Origin: Chloroflexi bacterium RBG_16_64_32
Lineage (GTDB): Bacteria; Chloroflexota; Dehalococcoidia; SM23-28-2; RBG-16-64-32
Assembly (NCBI GenBank): GCA_001795235.1
Contig: MGNZ01000136.1
Location: 1-24,560, forward strand
Reading direction: 5' to 3'
Length of the DNA stretch: 24,560 nucleotides
Below the pieces are notes generated by a model. That model did no database searches, had not been told where the DNA came from, and saw only the letters and a program-made list of their open reading frames with translations. A program made the translations under genes and the position numbers. Each line of letters begins with the position of its first letter. Position 1 is the first letter of the stretch. This document shows positions 1 to 13,875 of the stretch, piece after piece.

Positions 1-303
1 AGCCTTGACGAGAAAAGCGTCAACCCGATCGTAAGCGCCCTCAATCTCCTCGGTCGAAACCTGGAGAGAGCGGGCGCGCTCGCCGTGAACGCCGTCGATC
101 TCCTGGTTGTACCGCATTACTGCCGCGTCACCGTGCTCCCTGACATCGCCAAGGATACGGTCAACTACCTCGCCGACGCCCAGCTCCAGCCCGAATACGC
201 GGCGTATGACCTCGCGCACCGCAGGCGGCAGCTCAGCCGCCTCAAGAGGAGCGCGGCGAAGCACCGAGCCTCTCGCGTCGTCCACTCCGCGGGCTATGCG
301 CAA
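1..303 (-). CDS. hisD: Histidinol dehydrogenase, N-terminal part (gene runs off the window start)
   Basis: Not in the ORF track. Manual minus-strand translation from a TTG at 303 gives MRIARGVDDARGSVLRRAPLEAAELPPAVREVIRRVFGLELGVGEVVDRILGDVREHGDAAVMRYNQEIDG...LQVSTEEIEGAYDRV, which matches the HisD N-terminus (V..IL.DVR..GD.A...Y....DG). GAGGGAG SD upstream; lies downstream of hisZ/hisG on the same strand; start overlaps the stop of 294..1052. Confidence 0.9.
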   Translation of the reverse strand, partial: MRIARGVDDARGSVLRRAPLEAAELPPAVREVIRRVFGLELGVGEVVDRILGDVREHGDAAVMRYNQEIDGVHGERARSLQVSTEEIEGAYDRVDAFLVKA

Positions 304-1052
304 CTCAGGTACTCCCTCGCTGCTTCCAGAGCTTCCTCTACGGAGCTATCCATGAACGCCCGGACCCGCTTCTCGGTCAGATAACGGAGCGTCTCATCCG
401 CCAGGTCCGGCAGCGACCGCACGAACTCCCGGAACTGCTCCGGCGTTTCGATCCCGGCCTCCCTGAGGTGACGGCTGGCGATGTAGCGGAACCGGTCCCA
501 ATCCGGAGGATGGTTCACCACGTCCAGGATGACCTCCTGCCATCGACGCAGCGTCTCGGCGTCGATGAGGTCGATCTCCAGCGCCAGGTCCGCGCGGGCG
601 ACCTCATCCAGAACATGGGCCATCAGATCGCGGTCGATGCGCTTCTGGCGGTCGAGGGAGAACTGCATCGCCCGGTCCATGATGTTCGCTCGTATGTTCC
701 CACCCAGGGGAGACCGCTCCCCAAAGAAAGGGCGATAGATCGTGTTGATCCACAGCTCGTCCATAACCAGGTGCGTCACGTAGCCGGCCACGAAGGCGAC
801 CGTGGCCGCGCTCAGCTCGCCCGGTTCGCGCAGCCGCGGGTAAGCCTGGAAGAGGCCCCCTACGCCGCTCTGCTCGTCGAAGTTGGCCAGGTCGAAAAAG
901 TGGGTGCGCCGGCGCTCCCAGCGGGTGATCACGCGGATGTCAGGAGCGGTGGAGCCCAGATAGAGGTTACCCCGCTCCTCTTCCAGAACACGGTGGCGCA
1001 GCCGGTCCGCCACCTCCTTAGCGATGACCGTGTGCAAACCCAGCGGTGGCAT
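294..1052 (-). CDS. Zinc-dependent phospholipase C / P1-S1 nuclease-like metallohydrolase (Zn_dep_PLPC-like)
   Basis: 252 aa with N-terminal H7, GSTAPD(38), TH(51)FF and GYVTH(94)LVMD(98), the metal-ligand pattern of the PLC/P1 superfamily. No signal peptide. Confidence 0.7.
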   Translation of the reverse strand: MPPLGLHTVIAKEVADRLRHRVLEEERGNLYLGSTAPDIRVITRWERRRTHFFDLANFDEQSGVGGLFQAYPRLREPGELSAATVAFVAGYVTHLVMDELWINTIYRPFFGERSPLGGNIRANIMDRAMQFSLDRQKRIDRDLMAHVLDEVARADLALEIDLIDAETLRRWQEVILDVVNHPPDWDRFRYIASRHLREAGIETPEQFREFVRSLPDLADETLRYLTEKRVRAFMDSSVEEALEAAREYLSCA

Positions 1053-1073
1053 CTCACATCTGACCTCGCCGCC

Positions 1074-1082
1074 ATTGTATCA
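1074..1082 (-). promoter_or_regulatory. Possible internal extended -10 promoter (TG-a-TACAAT) for the Zn-hydrolase/hisD segment
   Basis: TGATACAAT on the minus strand in the 36-nt gap between hisG stop and the 1052 start; no recognisable -35. Confidence 0.4.
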
Positions 1083-1088
1083 GACCAT

Positions 1089-2501
1089 CTACCCAGCGTT
1101 CGCGGACATCCGCAGGGATGAAACCACCTGGTCGAACAGCTTGCGGCGGCGTCCCGACAGCACCCGCTCCCTGGACGCAATGACGCAGGTGGTGGAGCGG
1201 AACAGGAGGTCTATCGGCTTGAGCCTGTTCTCGACCAGGGTCCTCCCTGTCTCGGTGCCTTCGATGAGCAGCTCAGCGTCCTCCGGCACGAACCCCTCGG
1301 ACGCCCCGGCGATGGGGATGACCTGATAGCGCCCCAGGTGGCGGCTCCGCGCGAAGGCATCGGCGATGCCAGGAAACTCGGACGCCACGCGGATCATCCG
1401 ATTCCCTTGCGCCCGCCAATGCGCCAGGGCGCCGTCCAGGTCTGACGCCGGCACATCCTCACTCACGACGGCGGCGACATTGAACTGACACCGCTGCAGG
1501 TCCACCAGTTCCTCTGCAGGGCTGGAAGGAAACCGGCTCAGGTGCTCCGTCAAACAATCACGGCCGGTCACTGCCAGGTCAATCTCACCCGTGGCAACGA
1601 GCTGCGGCATGTCGTGGGGACGGATCACTTTTATCTCCAGGCCTGCAAGCGCGCTCTTCGGACGGCGCAGGCACCGCGTTTCGTCATAGCCCGCAAGGGG
1701 CAGCAGGCCGGCCTCCCGCAGCGCCGCCACCACGTGGCGCTGCTGGTGACCGTCCGGCAGCGCCATCCGAAGCGATTGGCGTCGCGCCGGCGCTGGCCGC
1801 TTCTCGCCCGTCCCCGCCGGGAGCGGCGGCGGCAGCCGAAGCGACTGAGCTTCTCCTCTACTCCCGCTGCCCGCCAGCGGGCCTAGCAGGGGGCTCAGGT
1901 CCTTCTTCGCGAGGCTATCTGCGTTGGCGATGAGCCAGGCCGAGCTGCACAGCATGCGAAGCAGAGGGACAAGGCCCTTTGCGGATACGGCCGCCTCGTC
2001 GCCGGCCGCTATAACCGCCAGATCGGCGTCCTCTGGAGGGTAGGCCTCGGCGGCGCCCCACACAGCCTGCACCCGGTATGCGGGCAGCCTGGCCGCCAGA
2101 GCGAACGCCTCCGCTATGTTCGGGAACTCGCTGGCGACGCGGAGGCCTCGGCGGCCCCCTAGGGAGCCTAGGCCCTCTGTCTCGGCGGCGGACGCGACGT
2201 ACAGCCCAAGGCGGCCGACTCCCAGATCACGCAGCGACGCGACGGGGTGCTGAGGGTAGCGGGCCCGTAGCTCCTCAATCCATGCCAGCCCGCAGATACC
2301 GAGGTCGTAGCTTCCCATAGCGATCTGTATGGGGATGTCCTTCTCACGAAAAACCCGGGCGACTGCGCGCTCGTGCCCGCCAACGCTCAGGATGTACGTG
2401 CGGGAGCCCTCGCCGTAGCCTTCGACCTTCAGCCCGACCGACTCCAGGGCATCGGCAACGGGGGTGCGCAGATCACCCGCCGGAAGGGCGAGCTTAATCA
2501 C
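1089..2501 (-). CDS. hisG: ATP phosphoribosyltransferase with two tandem short-form HisG domains
   Basis: Two copies of the HisG fold: aa 1-~205 (KLALP, REKDIP, DLGICG, RVASEFP) and aa ~244-470 (RMALP, RPHDMP, DLAVTGRD, RVASEFP, EGTETGRTLVENRL), joined by a Pro-rich linker. No ACT domain. GTG start overlaps the hisZ stop. Confidence 0.88.
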   Translation of the reverse strand: MIKLALPAGDLRTPVADALESVGLKVEGYGEGSRTYILSVGGHERAVARVFREKDIPIQIAMGSYDLGICGLAWIEELRARYPQHPVASLRDLGVGRLGLYVASAAETEGLGSLGGRRGLRVASEFPNIAEAFALAARLPAYRVQAVWGAAEAYPPEDADLAVIAAGDEAAVSAKGLVPLLRMLCSSAWLIANADSLAKKDLSPLLGPLAGSGSRGEAQSLRLPPPLPAGTGEKRPAPARRQSLRMALPDGHQQRHVVAALREAGLLPLAGYDETRCLRRPKSALAGLEIKVIRPHDMPQLVATGEIDLAVTGRDCLTEHLSRFPSSPAEELVDLQRCQFNVAAVVSEDVPASDLDGALAHWRAQGNRMIRVASEFPGIADAFARSRHLGRYQVIPIAGASEGFVPEDAELLIEGTETGRTLVENRLKPIDLLFRSTTCVIASRERVLSGRRRKLFDQVVSSLRMSANAG

Positions 2502-3720
2502 GACCGGTCTGTCGCAGCGCCTCCGCCACAGCCTCCACGCTAGCCAAACGGCGTCCCTTCCCGCTCACTCCCGACAGCACGTACCCTTCGCCCGACGCCG
2601 CCACCCGCGGGCCGTCATCCGGGGCCGTTCCCGCTACCTGCGCGGCGAGCCCCTCCGCGCGCAGCGTGGCGGCCAGACGGAACGCCGACGCCAGGGACTC
2701 GCCGTCATCTGCCCTGGCAACGACCGTGACGATCTGTCGGGCTTCAGGGGCCTCCGCGGGCAGGAGATCTGCCAGAACAGCGGCTTCCAGCGCGAAACCG
2801 GACGCCGGTACGTGCTCGCCACCGATTAGCGAGACGAGCGCGTCGTAGCGCCCCCCGCTTCCGACCTTCTGGCCGGACACGTCCAGGTGGAACGCTGGCC
2901 CCGTGTAGTACTCGAAATTTCGCACCATCGCCGCCGAAATCAAGCAGCGGCAGCCGAGCGGTTCCAGCGCCCCGACGACGACCGCCAGTTCGTCCAGCGG
3001 CTCTTCCAGGGCAGGAATGCTCTCCACGAAGGTGCTGCGCAAATTGTTCAGGTAGGCCCTGCCCTCGCCCTCCACAGCCAGGAGCATACCCAGAGAGGCT
3101 CCCACATCCGGTAGCCGCTCCTGCAACTCCCGAAGGGCGCCGGCATCTCCATCCAGAATACGGTCATAAACGGCAAGCTGCTCAGCCGCGTCCAACCCGG
3201 CGCGCGCCAGCACTGCGCGCACCAGCCCTGGGTGCGAAACCCTCACGTCGGCGTCCAGGCCGAGGCGAGCCAGCACCTCACGCGCAAGCAGGATAAGCTC
3301 AATGTCGCCCTGAGGCTGGCTCTCCCCGATGAGCTCTACCCCACACTGCCAGTCCTCCCTCGATTCATCGCCCTCAGCGAAGCGGAAGACGCTCTGCACG
3401 TAGAACAGCTTTGCCAGCTTGCCGCCGTCCAGGTACTCCCCGTAGAGCCTTGCCGAAGGGATAGTTGAGTCGGGCCGCATCACCACGCGCTCGCCGCTCC
3501 ACCCATCCCAATCGAGGAACGAGTAGACGCGGCCCAGCATCTGAGGCGAAAGGGTGCCTGAAGAAGTGAACAGATGCAGATGCTCCAGGACCGGGGTGCG
3601 GATCTCCTCGTACCCCCAACCCAAGCAGGCCGTGCGGAACGCCTCTTCCACACGGCGGAAACGCCTCATATCGTCCGGCAGCATGTCTCGCATGCCGCGG
3701 CAGCGTAAGTTTTCGCCCAT
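2494..3720 (-). CDS. hisZ: ATP phosphoribosyltransferase regulatory subunit (HisRS paralogue)
   Basis: GMRDMLP, RPDST, YYTG, GGRYD motifs of the HisRS fold; lacks the HisRS motif-2 loop (RxERPQxGRxRQF is replaced by FAEGDESRED); directly upstream of short-form hisG. Start moved to the ATG at 3720 (AGGAG 9 nt upstream, fits the promoter at 3749-3777). Confidence 0.88.
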   Translation of the reverse strand: MGENLRCRGMRDMLPDDMRRFRRVEEAFRTACLGWGYEEIRTPVLEHLHLFTSSGTLSPQMLGRVYSFLDWDGWSGERVVMRPDSTIPSARLYGEYLDGGKLAKLFYVQSVFRFAEGDESREDWQCGVELIGESQPQGDIELILLAREVLARLGLDADVRVSHPGLVRAVLARAGLDAAEQLAVYDRILDGDAGALRELQERLPDVGASLGMLLAVEGEGRAYLNNLRSTFVESIPALEEPLDELAVVVGALEPLGCRCLISAAMVRNFEYYTGPAFHLDVSGQKVGSGGRYDALVSLIGGEHVPASGFALEAAVLADLLPAEAPEARQIVTVVARADDGESLASAFRLAATLRAEGLAAQVAGTAPDDGPRVAASGEGYVLSGVSGKGRRLASVEAVAEALRQTGRD

Positions 3721-3748
3721 ACTGCACATCTCCTGCGGGATGTGCCTC

Positions 3749-3777
3749 ATTCTAGCGCAGCCCCCGCCCCCATTCAA
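3749..3777 (-). promoter_or_regulatory. Sigma70-type promoter of the his operon
   Basis: TTGAAT (3777-3772), 17-nt spacer, TAGAAT (3754-3749). Confidence 0.65.
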
Positions 3778-3845: not shown

Positions 3846-5198
3846 ATGACCGCTGTCCGCCCTGTGTCGCTCTCCCGCTTCCGCTCCCTGCGGCTGACCA
3901 TCGCCCTCGTGTTCCTCATCCTGGGTGTGGCCGGCTTCGCCTGCGGCGGCGGTCCCGGAGCGCCGCCGGACGCCGTCCACGTCCTCACCGCCGACGGCGT
4001 AGTGGGGCCGGTTATGGAGCGCTATCTGGACCGAGGCATTGACGCCGCCGAGGACGAGCAGGGAGAAGCCGTGGTCATCCGTCTGGACACTCCGGGCGGA
4101 CTCATATCCTCCATGAACGACATTGTGAAGCGCATCCTGTCGTCGGAGGTGCCCGTTATCGTTTACGTTAGCCCTCAGGGCGGCCAAGCCGCCTCCGCCG
4201 GTACGTTCATCACCATGGCCGCCCACGTGGCGGCTATGGCGCCGGCCACCCGCCTGGGCGCCGCCACGCCTGTGGGCAGCGGCGGCGAGGAGATTCAGGG
4301 GCCGCTCGGAGACAAGGTGACAAACGACGCGGCGGCCCAGATCAAGGCCCTGGCCGAGCTCAGGGGCCGTAACCAGGAGTGGGCCGAGAGCGCCGTTCGC
4401 GATGCCGTCTCCGCCAATGCCACCGAGGCGCTGGCGCTCAATGTCGTCGATCTCGTCGCTAACGATCTGGATGAGCTGCTAAACTCGGTCGACGGCCGTG
4501 ACATTACCCTGTACTCCGACCGCGAGGTGACCCTCCAGACGGCGGACGCAGAAGTCGTGTTCAACAACATGAGCTTCGTTGAGCGCTTCCTGGACGTCAT
4601 CGCCGACCCGAACATCTCCCTGTTGCTGCTATCGTTAGGCTCTCTGGCTATCTTCATCGAGATCGTGAACCCGGGAGTGATATTCCCCGGTGTGTTCGGG
4701 GTCATCGCTCTGATCCTGGGCTTCTTCTCCCTCAGCGTTCTGCCCTTCAACTGGGCGGGCGTGGCCCTCATCATCTTCGCGTTCGTGCTGTTCGGACTGG
4801 AGATCTTTGTGCCCAGCGGAGGAATATTAGGCGGCGGAGGTGTTGTCGCCCTCATCCTGGGCGGCCTCCTCCTCACGAGCGGTAACCCGCCGGAGTTCCA
4901 GGTGTCTCGTTGGCTGCTCTTCGGGCTGGCTGCGGCCATGGGAGCGATTGTCATCTTCGTCCTGGTCAATATCATGCGCATCCGCATGATGCCGGCCCAG
5001 GTGGGCATAGAGACCTTCGTCGGCCACGAAGCTGTCGTCCGCTCAACTCTCGATCCTCAGGGATTCGTCTTCCTGGACGGGGAGCGCTGGACTGCTGAGT
5101 CGGAAGAGGGCACAATCCAGGAGGGCGAGCGCGTCGTGATCACGGAAGTCCACGGGCTTAGACTCAAGGTCAGAAAGCAAGAGCCGGAAGGAGGCTAG
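3846..5198 (+). CDS. nfeD: NfeD family membrane-bound ClpP-class serine protease (long form)
   Basis: LDTPGG, AASAG (catalytic Ser), DK..ND (Lys), multi-TM middle region, C-terminal OB-like domain (GERWTAES...V...GLRLKV); followed by an SPFH gene. Confidence 0.93.
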
Positions 5199-5200
5199 CT

Positions 5201-6064
5201 ATGTCCACCGAACTGGAGCCCGGCACGCCGACGGGCCCCCGATGGTTGTCAAAAATCCTCACCGCCCTGGGAATGGTGCTGGTCGTGCCCCTCTTCCCCC
5301 TGGCCGTCAAGATCGTGCCCGAGTACCAGCGGGGCGTCATCTTCCGCCTGGGGCGGCTGGTCGGCGCCCGCGGACCGGGGCTGTTCCTCATCATCCCTAT
5401 CGTGGAGCGGATGGTCATCGTGGACCTGCGCATCGTGACGATGGACGTACCGCGACAGGACGTCATCACCAGGGACAACGTCACGGTCAAGGTGGACGCG
5501 GTCATCTACTTCCGCGTGACCGACCCGGATGCCGCGGTCGTCAAGGTGATGGATTACGTTCGGGCGACCTCCCTCGTCGCCCAGACCACCCTCCGCAGCA
5601 TCCTCGGCCAGTCCGACCTGGACGAGCTGCTCAGTAAGCGCGAGCAGCTCAACCAGCAGTTGCAGAAGATCATCGACGACGCCACCGAGCCCTGGGGAGT
5701 CAAGGTGACCATCGTCGAGGTGCGCGACGTGGCTCTGCCCCCTGAGATGGTCCGCGCCATGTCCAAGCAGGCCGAGGCCGAGCGGGAGCGCCGCGCCAAG
5801 ATCATCCACGCCCAGGGCGAGTTCCAGGCGGCCGAGAAGCTGTCCGAAGCGGGCAAGATAATGGCCGCCACTCCCACCACCCTCCAGCTACGCTACCTCC
5901 AGACCCTCACCGAGATCTCGTCTGAGCACCACAGCACGGTCATCTTCCCGGTGCCCATCGATGTCCTCAGTCAGTTCGTGCGGGGCATGAGCGGCGGCGG
6001 CGGCACCGGACAGGGCGCCGGTCGCCGGCAGATTCCGGTGGAGGAAGAGGAGAAGAAGAGCTAG
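5201..6064 (+). CDS. SPFH/band-7 stomatin-like protein (slipin)
   Basis: [56 protein letters not shown]; adjacent to nfeD. Confidence 0.95.
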
Positions 6065-6066
6065 GC

Positions 6067-6105
6067 GGCCCGTCACCCCCTCAGCGCTCAGGGTGACGGC
6101 CCCCG
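6067..6105. repeat. Left copy of an imperfect direct repeat / hairpin (att-like)
   Basis: GGCCCGTCACC-CCCTCA-GCGCTCAGGGTGACG-G-CCCCCG; internal inverted repeat CCGTCACCC (6070-6078) / GGGTGACGG (6091-6099); matches 8757-8797. Confidence 0.7.
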
Positions 6106-6176
6106 TATACCATGCGCACTAATCTAATAGCGGGACCTCACACACCGTTCCGGAGTGCTCCCGAAGGGAGTCGCCC

Positions 6177-6452
6177 ATGGCTCTTCTGGAAGATAGGCGG
6201 CAACGCGCCCACCAAGGTGCCGGAAACGCGATCCAGACAAGAATTGCTCTCAAGGGAGAGGCTTGAACACTACATGGTGCATGACCCTATGTTTCTGGTC
6301 GAACCCGTGCTCGTGATCGGGTGCCGGGTTCCGATACGCTATACGGAGAACAAGCGTGACATTTTCGCTCTCGATCCCCAGGAAACGCGGCGGTCCTGAA
6401 GCTCAGCCGCGGGCAGCCGCAAGATCGAGTCGATATACATTATGGCCTTCAC
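6177..6452 (+). pseudogene. Frameshifted remnant of a NucS-like PD-(D/E)XK endonuclease (end approximate)
   Basis: SD GAAGGGAG plus ATG at 6177. Stitching frames gives MAL/WKIGG...RERLEHYMVHDPMFLVEPVLVIGCRVP...KRDIFALDPQ/GNAAVLKLSRGQPQDRVDI, resembling E..LE..I...P......LLIIGRQV......D.LALD..G..VIIELKRG. Two frameshifts, and the ELK motif is degraded to KLS. Confidence 0.5.
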
Positions 6453-6588
6453 AACCGCGTCAGCGATGTCCTCAAGACATCAGAGCGGCCCATAGGGGAA
6501 GTAGTCCGCAAGAATCACCCTCACGATCCATCGCGGCCAGTGAGGCCCTGTTCGTGGGCCCGCATCGCACGACACAGCACGTTCCCGA

Positions 6589-6617
6589 TTGAGAAATCTC
6601 TCTGACGGGCGGATAAT
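6589..6617 (+). promoter_or_regulatory. Sigma70-type promoter
   Basis: TTGAGA (6589-6594), 17-nt spacer, GATAAT (6612-6617) upstream of the 6676 ORF. Confidence 0.5.
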
Positions 6618-6675
6618 CACTCCGGGTAGGGTGGAACAGGACGACTGCGCAGCCGTATGCGAAGGGAGAAGAGCG

Positions 6676-6939
6676 ATGAAGTTCCTTGATCGCCTGTTGG
6701 GACGCAAAGAGGCATCCCCTGCTGAGGCGGAGGTAGCAGAACCAGACTGTCCGCATGTTGCGTTGGTCCCCTTTTGGGACTCGGCCGAAGATATCGGCGT
6801 ACACGAGAAGATTAGTCGTTACGAATGTGAGAGCTGCAAGGCGGCCTTTACGCGCGAACAGGGCGAGCAAATCCGCGTGGAGGGGGCGGAACGACTGCGT
6901 CTTTCCGAGAAGGACCGACGGGATCGCCTAGCGGAATAG
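6676..6939 (+). CDS. Small hypothetical protein (87 aa), putative zinc-binding (CPH...CESC)
   Basis: SD GAAGGGAG, ATG at 6676, MKFLDRLLG start, CxH plus CxxC ligand set, upstream promoter. Confidence 0.7.
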   Translation: MKFLDRLLGRKEASPAEAEVAEPDCPHVALVPFWDSAEDIGVHEKISRYECESCKAAFTREQGEQIRVEGAERLRLSEKDRRDRLAE

Positions 6940-7289
6940 GACCCCGACCTGCGTGGACGCCAAGCACCTCCGGCGACAGGCGCGCTTGCGGGCACGCACG
7001 ACGACCGCCTTTGCCGATCAGAGACCCCTGTAACCAGTCCGAGAGTGACTAACTCAGCTGAGAGGACAGTATGGTGTCTTGGGGTCGACTCCCAGGCGCC
7101 TCTTGGCGACCCATCTTGACCCCCTGGCTACAATGACGCTCAGAGGTCGCGGCAACCGCGTTCTGGATTGTCGTGTTCCCCCCCTCGGGATCCAGAGTCA
7201 GTCGCGAACTGGGACCCTGTCGAGACGTCCCGTTGGGTCCGCAGTCGGCAACTGGCAGAGCACAGATTTCAATCACGGCTTCAAACAAA

Positions 7290-7436
7290 TCAACGGTCAC
7301 TTTCCGCCAGCAGTGCGCGTATTATCATCGTTTGGAGAAGCTGGAGCGCTGGCCTATCCCCTGCGCTGCGCTCAAAAGCCTCCGCGAGAAGCTCGTCGGT
7401 AGTCCATGCGCTCAGATCCTTCGCCAAAATTCCCAT
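7290..7436 (-). CDS. Small hypothetical protein, 48 aa (below ORF-track cut-off)
   Basis: SD AGGAGG 5 nt upstream of ATG; MGILAKDLSAWTTDELLAEAFERSAGDRPALQLLQTMIIRALLAESDR*; same strand as the upstream small genes. Confidence 0.6.
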   Translation of the reverse strand: MGILAKDLSAWTTDELLAEAFERSAGDRPALQLLQTMIIRALLAESDR

Positions 7437-7481
7437 CAAACCCTCCTATGTGCCGTTCCGCAAGGTGCTAACGCCTTTCCC

Positions 7482-7706
7482 TTAGCGCATTGGTCTAACC
7501 CCCAGCATCTGCGCAGACTGAGGCGGTTGGGTGTGCCGAGCATATGACCCGCTAAAGCTGTTATTGAAGTTGCGCCGAGCGCCGCACCGCTTACAGACTC
7601 CCTCACTCACGGGACCATCTTGCCTTCCGATCAACCAATGGTGCGAGTCGCCGACGAAGCTAAGGCCGTCGACGGGAGGGCCGCTACCACTGCGGCTGTC
7701 TACCAC
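7482..7706 (-). CDS. Small hypothetical protein with HHW...CxxC putative metal site
   Basis: SHHWLIGRQDGPVSEGVCKRCGARRNFNNS; GTG start overlaps the RRM stop; start and SD uncertain. Confidence 0.5.
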   Translation of the reverse strand: MVDSRSGSGPPVDGLSFVGDSHHWLIGRQDGPVSEGVCKRCGARRNFNNSFSGSYARHTQPPQSAQMLGVRPMR

Positions 7707-8011
7707 CGTTCGCGACCGTAGTTGGAACCGCCCGAGCGCGCACCCGATCTGTCTCCGTCGCGCCGTGCAGGACGCGCCTCTTCCACCCTGATCACTCGTT
7801 CTCCCAGCGTCTTGCCATTCAACTCAGCGATCGCCCGCCGCGTTTCGGCATCGGTGGACATCTCGACGAAGCCGAAGCCTTTGGAGCGACCGGAGTCCCT
7901 ATCGGTGATGACGGTCGCTGACTGGACCGTGCCTGTCTGCTGGAAGAACGTCTTAAGCTCTTCGTCCGCAGTGTCGTATGAGAGACCGCCTACGTAAAGT
8001 TTGTTGGCCAT
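7700..8011 (-). CDS. RRM (RNP-1) RNA-binding protein
   Basis: RNP2 KLYVGGLSY, RNP1 RSKGFGFVEM, Gly/Arg-rich tail; start at ATG 8011 with SD AGGAGG. Confidence 0.93.
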   Translation of the reverse strand: MANKLYVGGLSYDTADEELKTFFQQTGTVQSATVITDRDSGRSKGFGFVEMSTDAETRRAIAELNGKTLGERVIRVEEARPARRDGDRSGARSGGSNYGRERW

Positions 8012-8152
8012 TGAGTATTCCTCCTCTTGCCCGGCTTTCATCTAGCCGAACAATGTGTTGTCAGTTCTTTTGGATGTTCCTAGCCGGTCCTGCTGCGGGC
8101 ACCGCCAACTAAGGTGGCTCCTGAGGCTACTGTGCTTGGAGCGGGCGGGCGT

Positions 8153-8434
8153 CCGAAGCAGTTACAGCGCTAGGCTGAACGACCCTTGCGGGCTCAATAA
8201 CGACCTGTGGCCGCTTCTTGCGATCGGGACGATTGCGGCGTGGAGCTAGCGCGGGTGTGACCGATAGCCAGCACCCCCGCTATCACGACGCGCATCTTCG
8301 CGTGACCTCCAGCAGCTATGGCAGCGTTTAGGTTGGTCGTATCCTAGTTCACCAGATAGCCCTTGTTCTTCGGCGCTGAAGGTGAAGGACAGACTGCAGT
8401 CGCGACAGGTGAGATTCTTGTCCTGGTAGCTCAT
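8153..8434 (-). pseudogene. Zinc-ribbon (zf-trcl-like) plus degraded CxxC-x17-CxxC protein; open frame 8246..8434
   Basis: SD GAGGAG, MSYQDKNLTCRDC..FTFSAEEQ...GY..PKRCHSC; in-frame TAG at 8246-8248 followed by LHAAI and frameshifted PD...QV..EP.QGS...CNCF resembling the usual second domain. Confidence 0.55.
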
Positions 8435-8535
8435 GGGTGATCTCCTCTCTTCCAAAGTTGGATCAGTTCGGGTCACCACGAGCCCAGGTCGCTAGGCTAA
8501 AGCCTGAGGGGGCCTAAACGTTCGCCACTGGCAAG

Positions 8536-8546
8536 AGTATACCACA
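8536..8546 (-). promoter_or_regulatory. Extended -10 promoter (TGTG-G-TATACT) for the minus-strand small-gene cluster
   Basis: TGTGGTATACT ~100 nt upstream of the 8434 start; the same TGGTATACT core precedes rnpB. Confidence 0.55.
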
Positions 8547-8756
8547 GTTGTCCGCAAGCGGACTCGGTCATGGGGTTACGGCCGTCGGAGCCAAACCCAA
8601 GACGAGACCATTGCGGTCCTAGAGGAGTCCGCCAGCCTCGCCGAGCCACGAGCGCTCTCTCCGTTGTCTTGACGCCCCGCCGGCTGGTTCCGGGCATCCC
8701 GATGGCCTCCATCAGCAGCCTCGGCCTATCGCGGTCTGCAGCCTGCCGTGAAGCAG

Positions 8757-11356: not shown

Positions 11357-11371
11357 GCGTTTCCCTAGAGC

Positions 11372-11753
11372 GGCCCAGCAGACCTGTAGGCCGAGTTCTG
11401 TAGTCCGCCAGGGCGGACCGGTGACCATCAATCTAGCCCCGCCGTTGCCAGCGGGGTCCAGCGGCCAACCCGAGAGCGTCGGGCCGGGCGCCCTTTCCCG
11501 CCCGTGGCGGGAGCCCTCCTATTTGGCCTTGCTCCGCGCGGGGTTTAGCCGGCCTCCGGCTCACACCGGAGCCGGTGGGCTCTTACCCCACCATTTCACC
11601 CTTACCCCGATTGCTCGAGGCGGTATGTTTCTGTGCCACTTTCCGTCGGGTCACCCCGCCTGGGCGTTACCCAGCGCGCTGCCCGGTGGAGCTCGGACCT
11701 TCCTCCCGTCCCCGCCCAGGGCGGGAACCGGCGGTCACCCGGTCTGCTGGACC
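11372..11753 (-). ncRNA. rnpB: RNase P RNA, bacterial class A
   Basis: Minus strand has GAGGAAGGUCCGAGCUC near the 5' end, GAAAGUG.CACAGAAA, GGGUGAAA.GGUGGGGUAAGAGCCCACC, GGCUAAACCCC...GGAGCAAGGCCAAAUAGG, and ACAGAACUCGGCCUAC near the 3' end; P1 helix CCAGCAGACC / GGUCUGCUGG. Confidence 0.97.
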
Positions 11754-12064: not shown

Positions 12065-12478
12065 CTAGCCGCGATCGAGCGCTTCGTTTGCCAGCTTGTC
12101 GGCGCGGCGGTTCCCGTCCCTCCGCACGTGCCGCACACTGAACGACGTGAACCGCCATTGCAGGTCTTTCACGCGTCCAAACAGACGCCGCAATGAGGGA
12201 TTACGTACCTTGTACCGCGAGTCGAGCTGGCGAACCACCAGCTCGGAGTCCATACGCAGCTCTACGTCGCGCGCACCCAGGGCCAGGGCCGCCTCTAGAC
12301 CGGCGATAGCAGCGCGATACTCCGCCTCGTTGTTCGTTGCCCGGCCAATGCGGCGGGACACGGTGTGGACCTCCTTCCCGGCCTCATCGAAGAGGGCAGC
12401 CCCGACCGAGGCGGGCCCGGGATTCCCGCGCGAGGCGCCGTCAACGTAGATGACCCACTTGGCGGCAGCCGCTCCCAC
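12065..12478 (-). CDS. rnhA: Ribonuclease HI (short RNase HI-like family)
   Basis: YVDGASRGNPGPA, TNNEAEY, DSELVVRQ, NRRADKLAN: D/E/D/D active site intact. Confidence 0.93.
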   Translation of the reverse strand: MGAAAAKWVIYVDGASRGNPGPASVGAALFDEAGKEVHTVSRRIGRATNNEAEYRAAIAGLEAALALGARDVELRMDSELVVRQLDSRYKVRNPSLRRLFGRVKDLQWRFTSFSVRHVRRDGNRRADKLANEALDRG

Positions 12479-13875
12479 TACAGCCTCAGGAAGACCTCGA
12501 CACCATCGTCGCGCACCACCACCCGCTCCAGGAGCTGGCGTAGCACCTCATAGCGCTCCGGGAACGTCAACTGCTCCCACTGCTCGCGGCACCGGGTCAA
12601 CGCATCCTGCTGCCGCTGCCGCCGTTCCGCCACCGAGGTCCGCTGCTGGGCCAGCCGCCGTCGCTCCGCGAGGGCTTCCTCGGTGGAGAGTTGCTCGCCG
12701 GCCACCTCAAGACCCAATGAACGAAGCCGTTCATCATTGATGCGACCGCTGGAGGCGGCATCCAGATATTGCTCGAGCCGCCGATCGAGCCGCCGCATCT
12801 TGTCTCGGAGCTTCTTCGTCTGTGCCTCGACGCGAGCCCGCTCATCATCCGCCACGGACCCCGGCATCTCCGCCTGGCCGCTCACAAGTGCGCTCTGTAC
12901 CTCGTCGTCCAGAGCCTCGGCGCGGCGGGTGTGGTAGTCACACAAGCTGCGGTTGGTGCGCGACTCGCACTGATAGTACCGGTAGAGTGCAGAGCGCATC
13001 TCCCCGTCGCTCCGTCTCTGCCAGCGCTGCCTGCGGGTGACGCCGATCATCTTGTTCCCGCAGTAGCCGCAGTGGGCCAAGCCGGAAAGCAAGAACCGAG
13101 ATGTCTCACGGACAACAGACTTGGGGCGACGCTGGTCGAGCTGCTCCTGCACGCGGCCGAAGTCCGCAGGCGAAATCAGGGGCGGATGGCTGGCCGGCAC
13201 TCTCACCCCGAAGCGACTGTAGGTGCCCACGTATGCCCGATTGCGCAGGATGTCCCGCACAGTCACCATGCTCCAGAGACCGCCGCGGCGGGTGTGCAGC
13301 GCTTCCTCGTTCAGGCGCCGGGCGATGCGCCGTATGCCCAAGCCATCCTTTATATACAGCCGGAAGATATATCGCACGACCGAACCCTCTTCCGGCACGA
13401 CCTGAAGCCGCCGCCGCGGTCCTACGCAGTACCCGTACGGCGGGCGGCCCAGAGCCTCACCCTTGACCGCCTTCCTGCGCATGGCGGCCCGCACCCGTTC
13501 TCCCAGGCGGCCGTTCTTGCGGGCTGCCGCCCACTGCGTCAGCAGCTCGGTCCCCGCGTCATCGCCATCGTCCATCGTCACCACGCTCGCACCCAAACTG
13601 GAAAGCTCGAAGTATCGCCGCGCCGACTCCGTCAGGTCGTCGCCCAACCCTGCCAGATCAGGCACGGCCACCAGCATAAACCCACGCTGGCGCTGATTGC
13701 GGAGGAACCCCACCAACTGCTGGAAGCCTACAACTTCATCAGGCATCTGAGTGGATTCGAGGAAGACGGCCGCCGCTTCATAGCCGTTGCGGCGACAGAA
13801 CTCCAGGAACGCCTTGCTCTGCTCCGCCAGCGGCATCTTGTCCTTCCGCTCCCTGAAGTAGCCTATCGCCCGCAT
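12478..13875 (-). CDS. Large serine recombinase-family protein (resolvase, recombinase, zinc ribbon, coiled coil), apparently catalytically inactive
   Basis: GRPPYGY, VRYIFRLY...IARRLN...W....VRDILRNRAYVG, HPPLIS, LLSGLAHCGYCGNKM, YYQC...C. N-terminal YFRER replaces YxRVS; AGLGD replaces DRLxR. Confidence 0.88.
   Translation of the reverse strand: MRAIGYFRERKDKMPLAEQSKAFLEFCRRNGYEAAAVFLESTQMPDEVVGFQQLVGFLRNQRQRGFMLVAVPDLAGLGDDLTESARRYFELSSLGASVVTMDDGDDAGTELLTQWAAARKNGRLGERVRAAMRRKAVKGEALGRPPYGYCVGPRRRLQVVPEEGSVVRYIFRLYIKDGLGIRRIARRLNEEALHTRRGGLWSMVTVRDILRNRAYVGTYSRFGVRVPASHPPLISPADFGRVQEQLDQRRPKSVVRETSRFLLSGLAHCGYCGNKMIGVTRRQRWQRRSDGEMRSALYRYYQCESRTNRSLCDYHTRRAEALDDEVQSALVSGQAEMPGSVADDERARVEAQTKKLRDKMRRLDRRLEQYLDAASSGRINDERLRSLGLEVAGEQLSTEEALAERRRLAQQRTSVAERRQRQQDALTRCREQWEQLTFPERYEVLRQLLERVVVRDDGVEVFLRL

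Follow-up and report, generated by a model that had tools for sequence, protein, structure and literature searches.

A predicted metal-dependent phosphoesterase of the PLC/P1 superfamily lies between hisG and hisD in Dehalococcoidia and is a tentative candidate for a histidinol-phosphate phosphatase

The his locus and its surroundings

The window, by which we mean the whole stretch of 24,560 nucleotides analysed here, is one entire contig (C136) of the metagenome-assembled genome of Chloroflexi bacterium RBG_16_64_32 (1.67 Mb, 72% complete). At its left end four genes form a row on the minus strand: hisZ, hisG, an open reading frame that we call X, and the 5' end of hisD (Table 1). The C-terminal part of hisD is found on another contig of the same assembly, where G000:C107:7451-7990 matches hisD positions 214-393. 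A sequence-only reading of this DNA had described X as a gene between hisG and hisD whose stop codon overlaps the hisD start by 10 nt and whose product has no signal peptide. All of this holds. The 252-aa frame is a real gene with his neighbours on the same strand, the overlap can be read directly from the two codons, and the N-terminus of the protein lacks a hydrophobic signal-like stretch, with helix 1 beginning at residue 4 in the structural model described below. The overlap implies that X and hisD are probably translationally coupled.

Table 1. Coordinates of the his genes and associated features in the window
Feature	Position	Strand	Remarks
hisD 5' part (histidinol dehydrogenase), first 101 codons	1..303	-	Pfam Histidinol_dh and TIGR00069; truncated by contig end
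X stop/hisD start overlap, 10 nt	294..303	-	TAG 296-294, TTG 303-301, read from sequence
X, ORF of 252 aa	294..1052	-	N-terminus MPPLGLH; Pfam PF00882, 23.6 bits
hisG-X spacer, 36 nt	1053..1088	-	GAGG Shine-Dalgarno-like motif about 12 nt before ATG
hisG, tandem two-domain short form, 470 aa	1089..2501	-	two HisG stretches in Pfam and TIGR00070
hisZ (ATP phosphoribosyltransferase regulatory subunit), first gene of the operon	2494..3777	-	tRNA-synt_His domain; TIGR00443, 185.6 bits

The tandem hisG is 53-78% identical to the hisG genes of relatives. The tandem form is kept across the order and is found in Dehalococcoidia without X too; a long-form hisG (HisG + HisG_C) occupies the same position in other lineages. 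Divergent from the operon, a plus-strand pair of genes for NfeD (450 aa) and an SPFH/stomatin protein (287 aa) is located at 3846-6064, and the same neighbours recur in genome G037. The following 2.7 kb (6064-8748) contain no ORF of at least 150 aa, no tRNA gene and no Rfam match, and have a slightly lower G+C content (0.60 versus about 0.65). Further along, a bacterial class A RNase P RNA is encoded on the minus strand at 11371-11750 (269.8 bits). About 0.7 kb from it lies a minus-strand gene for a large serine recombinase with Resolvase, Recombinase and zinc-ribbon domains (12478-13875), and an integrated element may have its boundary in this region.

Predicted fold and metal site of X

The sequence-only reading had also assigned X to Zn-dependent PLC/P1-like phosphoesterases. 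In a profile search the assignment stands in part: X has a real match to the Pfam family Zn_dep_PLPC (PF00882), limited to residues 7-98, but the score of 23.6 bits does not reach the gathering threshold of 26.8. Relatives of X score between 22 and 33.7 bits, and some homologues carry a precomputed PF00882 match. X has no match in NCBIfam. A profile search of solved structures with the X alignment returned no meaningful match, and the Protein Atlas returned only X's own family. An AlphaFold2 model, built from an alignment of 58 diverse relatives, is entirely helical and of high confidence (pLDDT 95.4, pTM 0.92). Foldseek found nothing for this model in the PDB at E <= 0.001. The relationship was recovered solely by an exhaustive structural alignment to 48,161 chains (VIA), in which the top six chains are all PLC or S1/P1 enzymes, bearing out the proposed fold. 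The top three are zinc-dependent phospholipases C, namely Clostridium absonum alpha-toxin (1OLP, Z 8.8), Bacillus cereus PLC (1AH7, Z 8.2) and Listeria PLC (8CQM, Z 8.2), and ranks 4-6 are S1/P1 nucleases (5FB9, 3W52 and 8QJL, Z 6.3-6.6), while the following match reaches only Z 3.6.

The alignment to phospholipases C covers 157-170 residues and spans the entire X model, so that the all-helical fold is common to both, with identity of only 13-14%. Unlike these enzymes, X is predicted to be cytoplasmic, lacks a signal peptide, and is embedded in a biosynthetic operon. It begins with a conserved Met-Pro (residues 1-2) and not with the mature N-terminal Trp of the phospholipases; a protein with this N-terminus does not qualify as secreted. 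S1/P1 nucleases, with which X shares the superfamily fold, are likewise secreted, as well as glycosylated and three-zinc, whereas X has neither a conserved third site nor a nucleic-acid context. S1/P1 nucleases also hydrolyse phosphomonoesters (3'-nucleotidase activity).

Conservation was counted over 173 distinct relatives of X. The residues named in the sequence-only reading (H7, D38, H51, H94 and D98) are confirmed: D38, H51, H94 and D98 are invariant, as is R47, and P2 together with H7 is kept in 169 of the 173, the remaining four being cut at the N-terminus. At least 97% of the relatives keep P2, H7, G33, P37, F87, G90, Y91, F110, D126, R127 and Q130, and at least 91% keep R40, R107, D134, W171, W185, R187 and R194 (more than 93% for R187 and R194). 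The resulting spacing of H ... D-x13-H ... H-x3-D plus the N-terminus is shared with the zinc-dependent phospholipases C and corresponds to the two-metal core of the PLC/P1 superfamily. The residue equivalence between X and PLC comes from the Pfam alignment and from spacing, and not from residue-level superposition. On these grounds X is predicted to retain the core ligands of a two-metal site, i.e. the N-terminus, H7, D38, H51, H94 and D98. The third zinc site of the superfamily (His, His, and Glu or Asp after H-x3-D) appears to be lost. We found no conserved His beyond H94 in the 173 relatives, nor a conserved Glu at this site, and D126, Q130 and D134 line one helix face where the third zinc would be bound. 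In S1/P1 nucleases an Arg located soon after the catalytic Asp binds phosphate, a residue presumably comparable to R40 and R47 of X.

Two distant Chloroflexota homologues encoded outside his operons keep the metal core and differ from X at positions 40, 107, 126 (His or Leu), 127, 130 and 187. R40, R107, D126, R127 and Q130 therefore look like putative specificity residues of the his-linked clade. Overall, X is best described as a predicted cytoplasmic metal-dependent phosphoesterase of the PLC/P1 nuclease superfamily. Our data show its fold, its conserved metal ligands, its place in the operon and the purifying selection on it; its substrate and reaction are inferred.

Distribution, gene order and selection

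The X family is large. A large protein collection contains about 980 matches, all annotated as 'hypothetical', which form 396 clusters at 50% identity. In species-representative genomes X is present in at least 418 loci, all of them from Chloroflexota or Dehalococcoidia MAGs. The family is restricted to the class Dehalococcoidia; beyond it we found no more than partial or distant homologues, in unrelated contexts. Within the class X is present in 88 of 151 good genomes, presence being all-or-none by family, and it is single-copy in 56 of 61 relatives.

We found that the gene order around X is strongly conserved. The order hisG-X-hisD is seen in 29 relatives' loci, and the longer arrangement hisZ-hisG-X-hisD-hisC-hisB in 80 species-representative loci examined. 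In another 80 loci from marine metagenomes, which carry a subfamily 27-39% identical to X, hisD-hisC-hisB comes after X wherever the flank is present. In total, X is linked to his genes in about 190 loci examined, at identities down to 27%. Homologues without such linkage, which the sequence-only reading would have counted against a histidinol-phosphatase role, are clearly not the rule. The spacing is tight on both sides. The stop codon of X overlaps the earliest start codon of the hisD frame that follows it by 4 nt in 53 of 136 loci and by 10 nt in 34 of them, and the median gap between hisG and X is 10 nt (83 loci). An apparent tendency of X to stay with hisD when hisG is elsewhere was ruled out, as a long-form hisG precedes X in those loci. 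Since X is positioned between hisG and hisD across hundreds of Dehalococcoidia species, a role in histidine synthesis is very probable.

In X-less relatives the operon is otherwise the same, but hisG adjoins hisD and nothing takes the place of X. Three X-less genomes belong to X-bearing families, and hisD was not seen in any of the three either. One X-less family has, in the usual place of X between hisG and hisD, small ORFs together with a HEPN-domain gene (L153, G322:C1, 5371-6695), probably a toxin-antitoxin insertion. In a one-contig genome with two family mates that lack X, the X gene contains an in-frame TGA (G343:C1:1331441-1332181, plus strand) and may be a decaying gene or an assembly error.

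Where it is present, X is under purifying selection, also beside HisN: dN/dS is 0.14-0.29 in the subclade of the window, all members of which have HisN (see below). The divergence of X exceeds that of HisD by a factor of 1.1-1.8. As a possible sign of relaxed selection on X beside HisN or HisJ, the X/HisD distance ratio at middle distances is slightly higher with these enzymes (1.60) than otherwise (1.23), for pairs that are non-independent and with a trend that is absent among close pairs.

Candidate reactions for X in histidine synthesis

Two steps of histidine synthesis concern us here. According to GapMind 2026 (PMC13759103), 20% of prototrophs lack a histidinol-phosphate phosphatase (HolPase) and 9% lack a PR-ATP pyrophosphatase, which makes these two the commonest unexplained steps of amino-acid biosynthesis. 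In the literature searched, we found no link between the PLC/P1 fold and histidine biosynthesis. Canonical enzymes for both steps occur together in only 6 of the 88 X-bearing genomes. We consider it evenly balanced whether X represents a new PLC/P1-fold family that acts as HolPase or as PR-ATP pyrophosphatase, possibly as both in one promiscuous enzyme. If it does, the family would fill one of these two gaps in histidine biosynthesis.

As a specific assignment, a HolPase acting just before HisD is the most economical, and we tentatively suggest that X is a second or alternative HolPase, with the reservation that the evidence for it as the missing pathway enzyme is weak. X, probably co-transcribed and translationally coupled with hisD, would convert L-histidinol phosphate by hydrolysis to L-histidinol, the substrate of HisD, and would thus complete the late block hisB-hisC-X-hisD. 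For the window genome this would mean a second HolPase, non-orthologous to the canonical HisN present there; about half of the X-bearing lineages would have no other recognisable HolPase. Known HolPases (HAD HisB-N, PHP HisJ/HisK, IMPase-type HisN, the HAD PSP-like PA0335 and the N. maritimus HisN) have no sequence or fold relationship to X; they possibly catalyse the same reaction and show the same kind of his-gene linkage (PMC5516325, PMC9798254, PMC10804674). X shares with this functional class the conserved linkage to his genes (about 190 loci), but it does not fill an otherwise empty step.

The histidinol-phosphatase proposal of the sequence-only reading thus keeps the support of the fold and of the his-operon position, but it is weakened by a canonical enzyme in the genome and by the distribution of X. 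The window genome encodes an IMPase-family protein (G000:C76:7558-8331, plus strand) that scores 296 bits with the HisN model TIGR02067, for which the cut-off is 275. Among solved structures it is best matched by the histidinol-phosphatases of M. tuberculosis, Z. mobilis and Medicago (166, 143 and 131 bits), with SuhB at about 95. Its motif 5 is rich in aromatic residues and its motif 6 has the non-glycine position, both as described in PMC5516325. The gene is not near other his genes. A canonical histidinol-phosphatase in the genome was one of the findings that the sequence-only reading had set against its own proposal, and in the window genome this HisN contradicts X as the missing pathway enzyme. 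The two can even share an operon. Family f88 has hisZ-hisG-X-hisD-hisC-hisB-hisN, in which a HisN-type IMPase gene at the operon end abuts hisB (G426:C1, L140, 6016-6813, minus strand); the best solved relative of this IMPase is the M. tuberculosis HolPase (180 bits versus 80 for SuhB). In G364, of the same family, hisB and hisN are separated by an inserted DNA methylase gene. Other organisms, too, are documented to have redundant HolPases (PMC5516325, PMC12220765).

Due to the proposed role, one could expect X and canonical HolPases to replace each other across genomes. We compared X with HisN (at least 225 bits) and HisJ (at least 85 bits) in the 151 good genomes, 145 of which have hisD. The phylogenetic profile, a check proposed with the original reading, revealed no complementarity: a canonical HolPase is present in 38 of 88 X-bearing genomes versus 8 of 63 X-less ones (6 of 57 among X-less genomes with hisD), i.e. 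it is commoner with X, and no anticorrelation of X with HisN, HisJ, HisB-N or HisE was found. In family f78 the two do alternate, G419 having X without HisN and G318 having HisN without X. No HisN, HisJ or HisB-N above or near the cut-off was found in 50 of the 88 X-bearing good genomes, and in X-bearing lineages without a recognisable HolPase the only IMPase is SuhB-like and adjoins argS. X-less relatives are also mostly without a known HolPase; therefore, the class should contain a HolPase outside the known families, with or without X.

Several other roles have to be weighed against a HolPase. X may instead perform, a reading that we rate only slightly below a HolPase, an accessory hydrolysis tied to histidine synthesis but outside the textbook steps. 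It might, for example, remove a phosphorylated or nucleotide by-product that is damaged or inhibitory, or an effector of ATP phosphoribosyltransferase. The sharing of an operon with a genuine HisN (f88) and with HisE (f20), in both cases with all core residues of X intact, is consistent with this, as are the six genomes that have X and both canonical enzymes, and as is the dispensability of X in sister lineages with the same operon, set beside its purifying selection where HisN exists. The conserved arginines R40, R47, R107 and R127, together with R187 and R194, hint at a strongly anionic substrate; yet no specific substrate can be named, and no known his side reaction needs such an enzyme. 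Moreover, operon-embedded hydrolases of initially unassigned role have usually proved to be HolPases. X as a non-orthologous PR-ATP pyrophosphohydrolase, an analogue of HisE acting on the product of HisG, is in our estimate unlikely. X does follow hisG of either type, whose product is PR-ATP, and attack at the phosphodiester-like alpha-phosphate would fit PLC/P1 chemistry. This is also the only his step without a candidate in the window genome, which is 72% complete, and the second commonest gap in prototrophs (PMC13759103). The HisE model TIGR03188 was not found in nine good genomes from families f1, f2, f6 and f7 (eight in the order of the window and one outside), and 54 of the 88 X-bearing genomes likewise gave no match to HisE; their hisI is stand-alone and about 110 aa long. 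But HisE or a fused HisIE is present in the other 34 of 88, HisE-less genomes without X are common (47 of 63), the coupling of X is tightest to hisD, and family f20 has hisE-hisG-X-hisD in one operon. A tandem MazG-like protein found in HisE-less genomes with and without X could do the step. HisE itself (PRA-PH) is a MazG-like all-alpha NTP pyrophosphatase, and X has no match to it in Pfam or NCBIfam (TIGR03188/PF01503); the reaction may be analogous, without homology. Like X, hisE adjoins hisG in some operons, and in f20 both do so together. Altogether, 101 of the 151 good Dehalococcoidia genomes (145 of 151 with hisD) gave no match to HisE, again with a stand-alone hisI of about 110 aa, which points to a pathway step without an assigned enzyme across Dehalococcoidia. 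In the HisE-less genomes we found only tandem MazG-like proteins with weak PRA-PH matches (e.g. G019:C1:2517811-2518026 and G357:C1:79078-79299). A link to soluble pyrophosphatase was considered and dropped: a membrane H+-PPase is present in X-bearing genomes, and four of five lack a family I PPase, a pattern that does not discriminate.

The remaining explanations do without a catalytic step in the pathway. The original reading had allowed for an unrelated gene captured in the operon, and we rate as improbable that X was captured once, inherited vertically and kept for a function outside histidine metabolism. The distribution, all-or-none by family, would fit one ancient insertion with subsequent losses, distant homologues elsewhere in Chloroflexota lack his linkage, and X is dispensable in sister clades. 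Against this stand the position and hisD overlap held down to 27% identity, the conserved residues proper to the his-linked clade, the joint absence of X and hisD in three informative cases, and a dN/dS of about 0.2; given such conservation and purifying selection, capture is an unlikely origin. We give even less credence to X as a protein that is not primarily a hydrolase but a metal-handling or regulatory partner, either of the zinc enzyme HisD or of HisG and HisZ. Translational coupling to hisD does suggest matched protein amounts, and the ligand set of X binds zinc in relatives. However, residues of the catalytic type, including an Asp at the general-base position and the arginines, are invariant, which is typical of an enzyme, and such a partner has no precedent in the PLC/P1 fold and no robust X fusion in its favour.

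Depending on its reaction, X could enlarge a classic example of non-orthologous replacement by a further fold, or it could reveal an extra reaction attached to a textbook pathway. At least 418 species-level genomes have it fixed in their his operon, in a class that is abundant and for the most part uncultured (Dehalococcoidia of soil, groundwater and the deep ocean). Current annotations of X genes read 'hypothetical' or 'phospholipase C', and the pathways reconstructed for their hosts are scored as incomplete. A Rosetta-stone search for fusions of X with his enzymes among longer proteins gave two matches only, neither of them robust. P0272 was rejected as a frameshift artefact. P0271 (610 aa), which resembles an X-HisD fusion, was not trusted: it joins residue 246 of X to residue 52 of HisD, with a 29-aa gap in HisD, and is either an erroneous sequence or, perhaps, a fusion that occurs rarely in nature.
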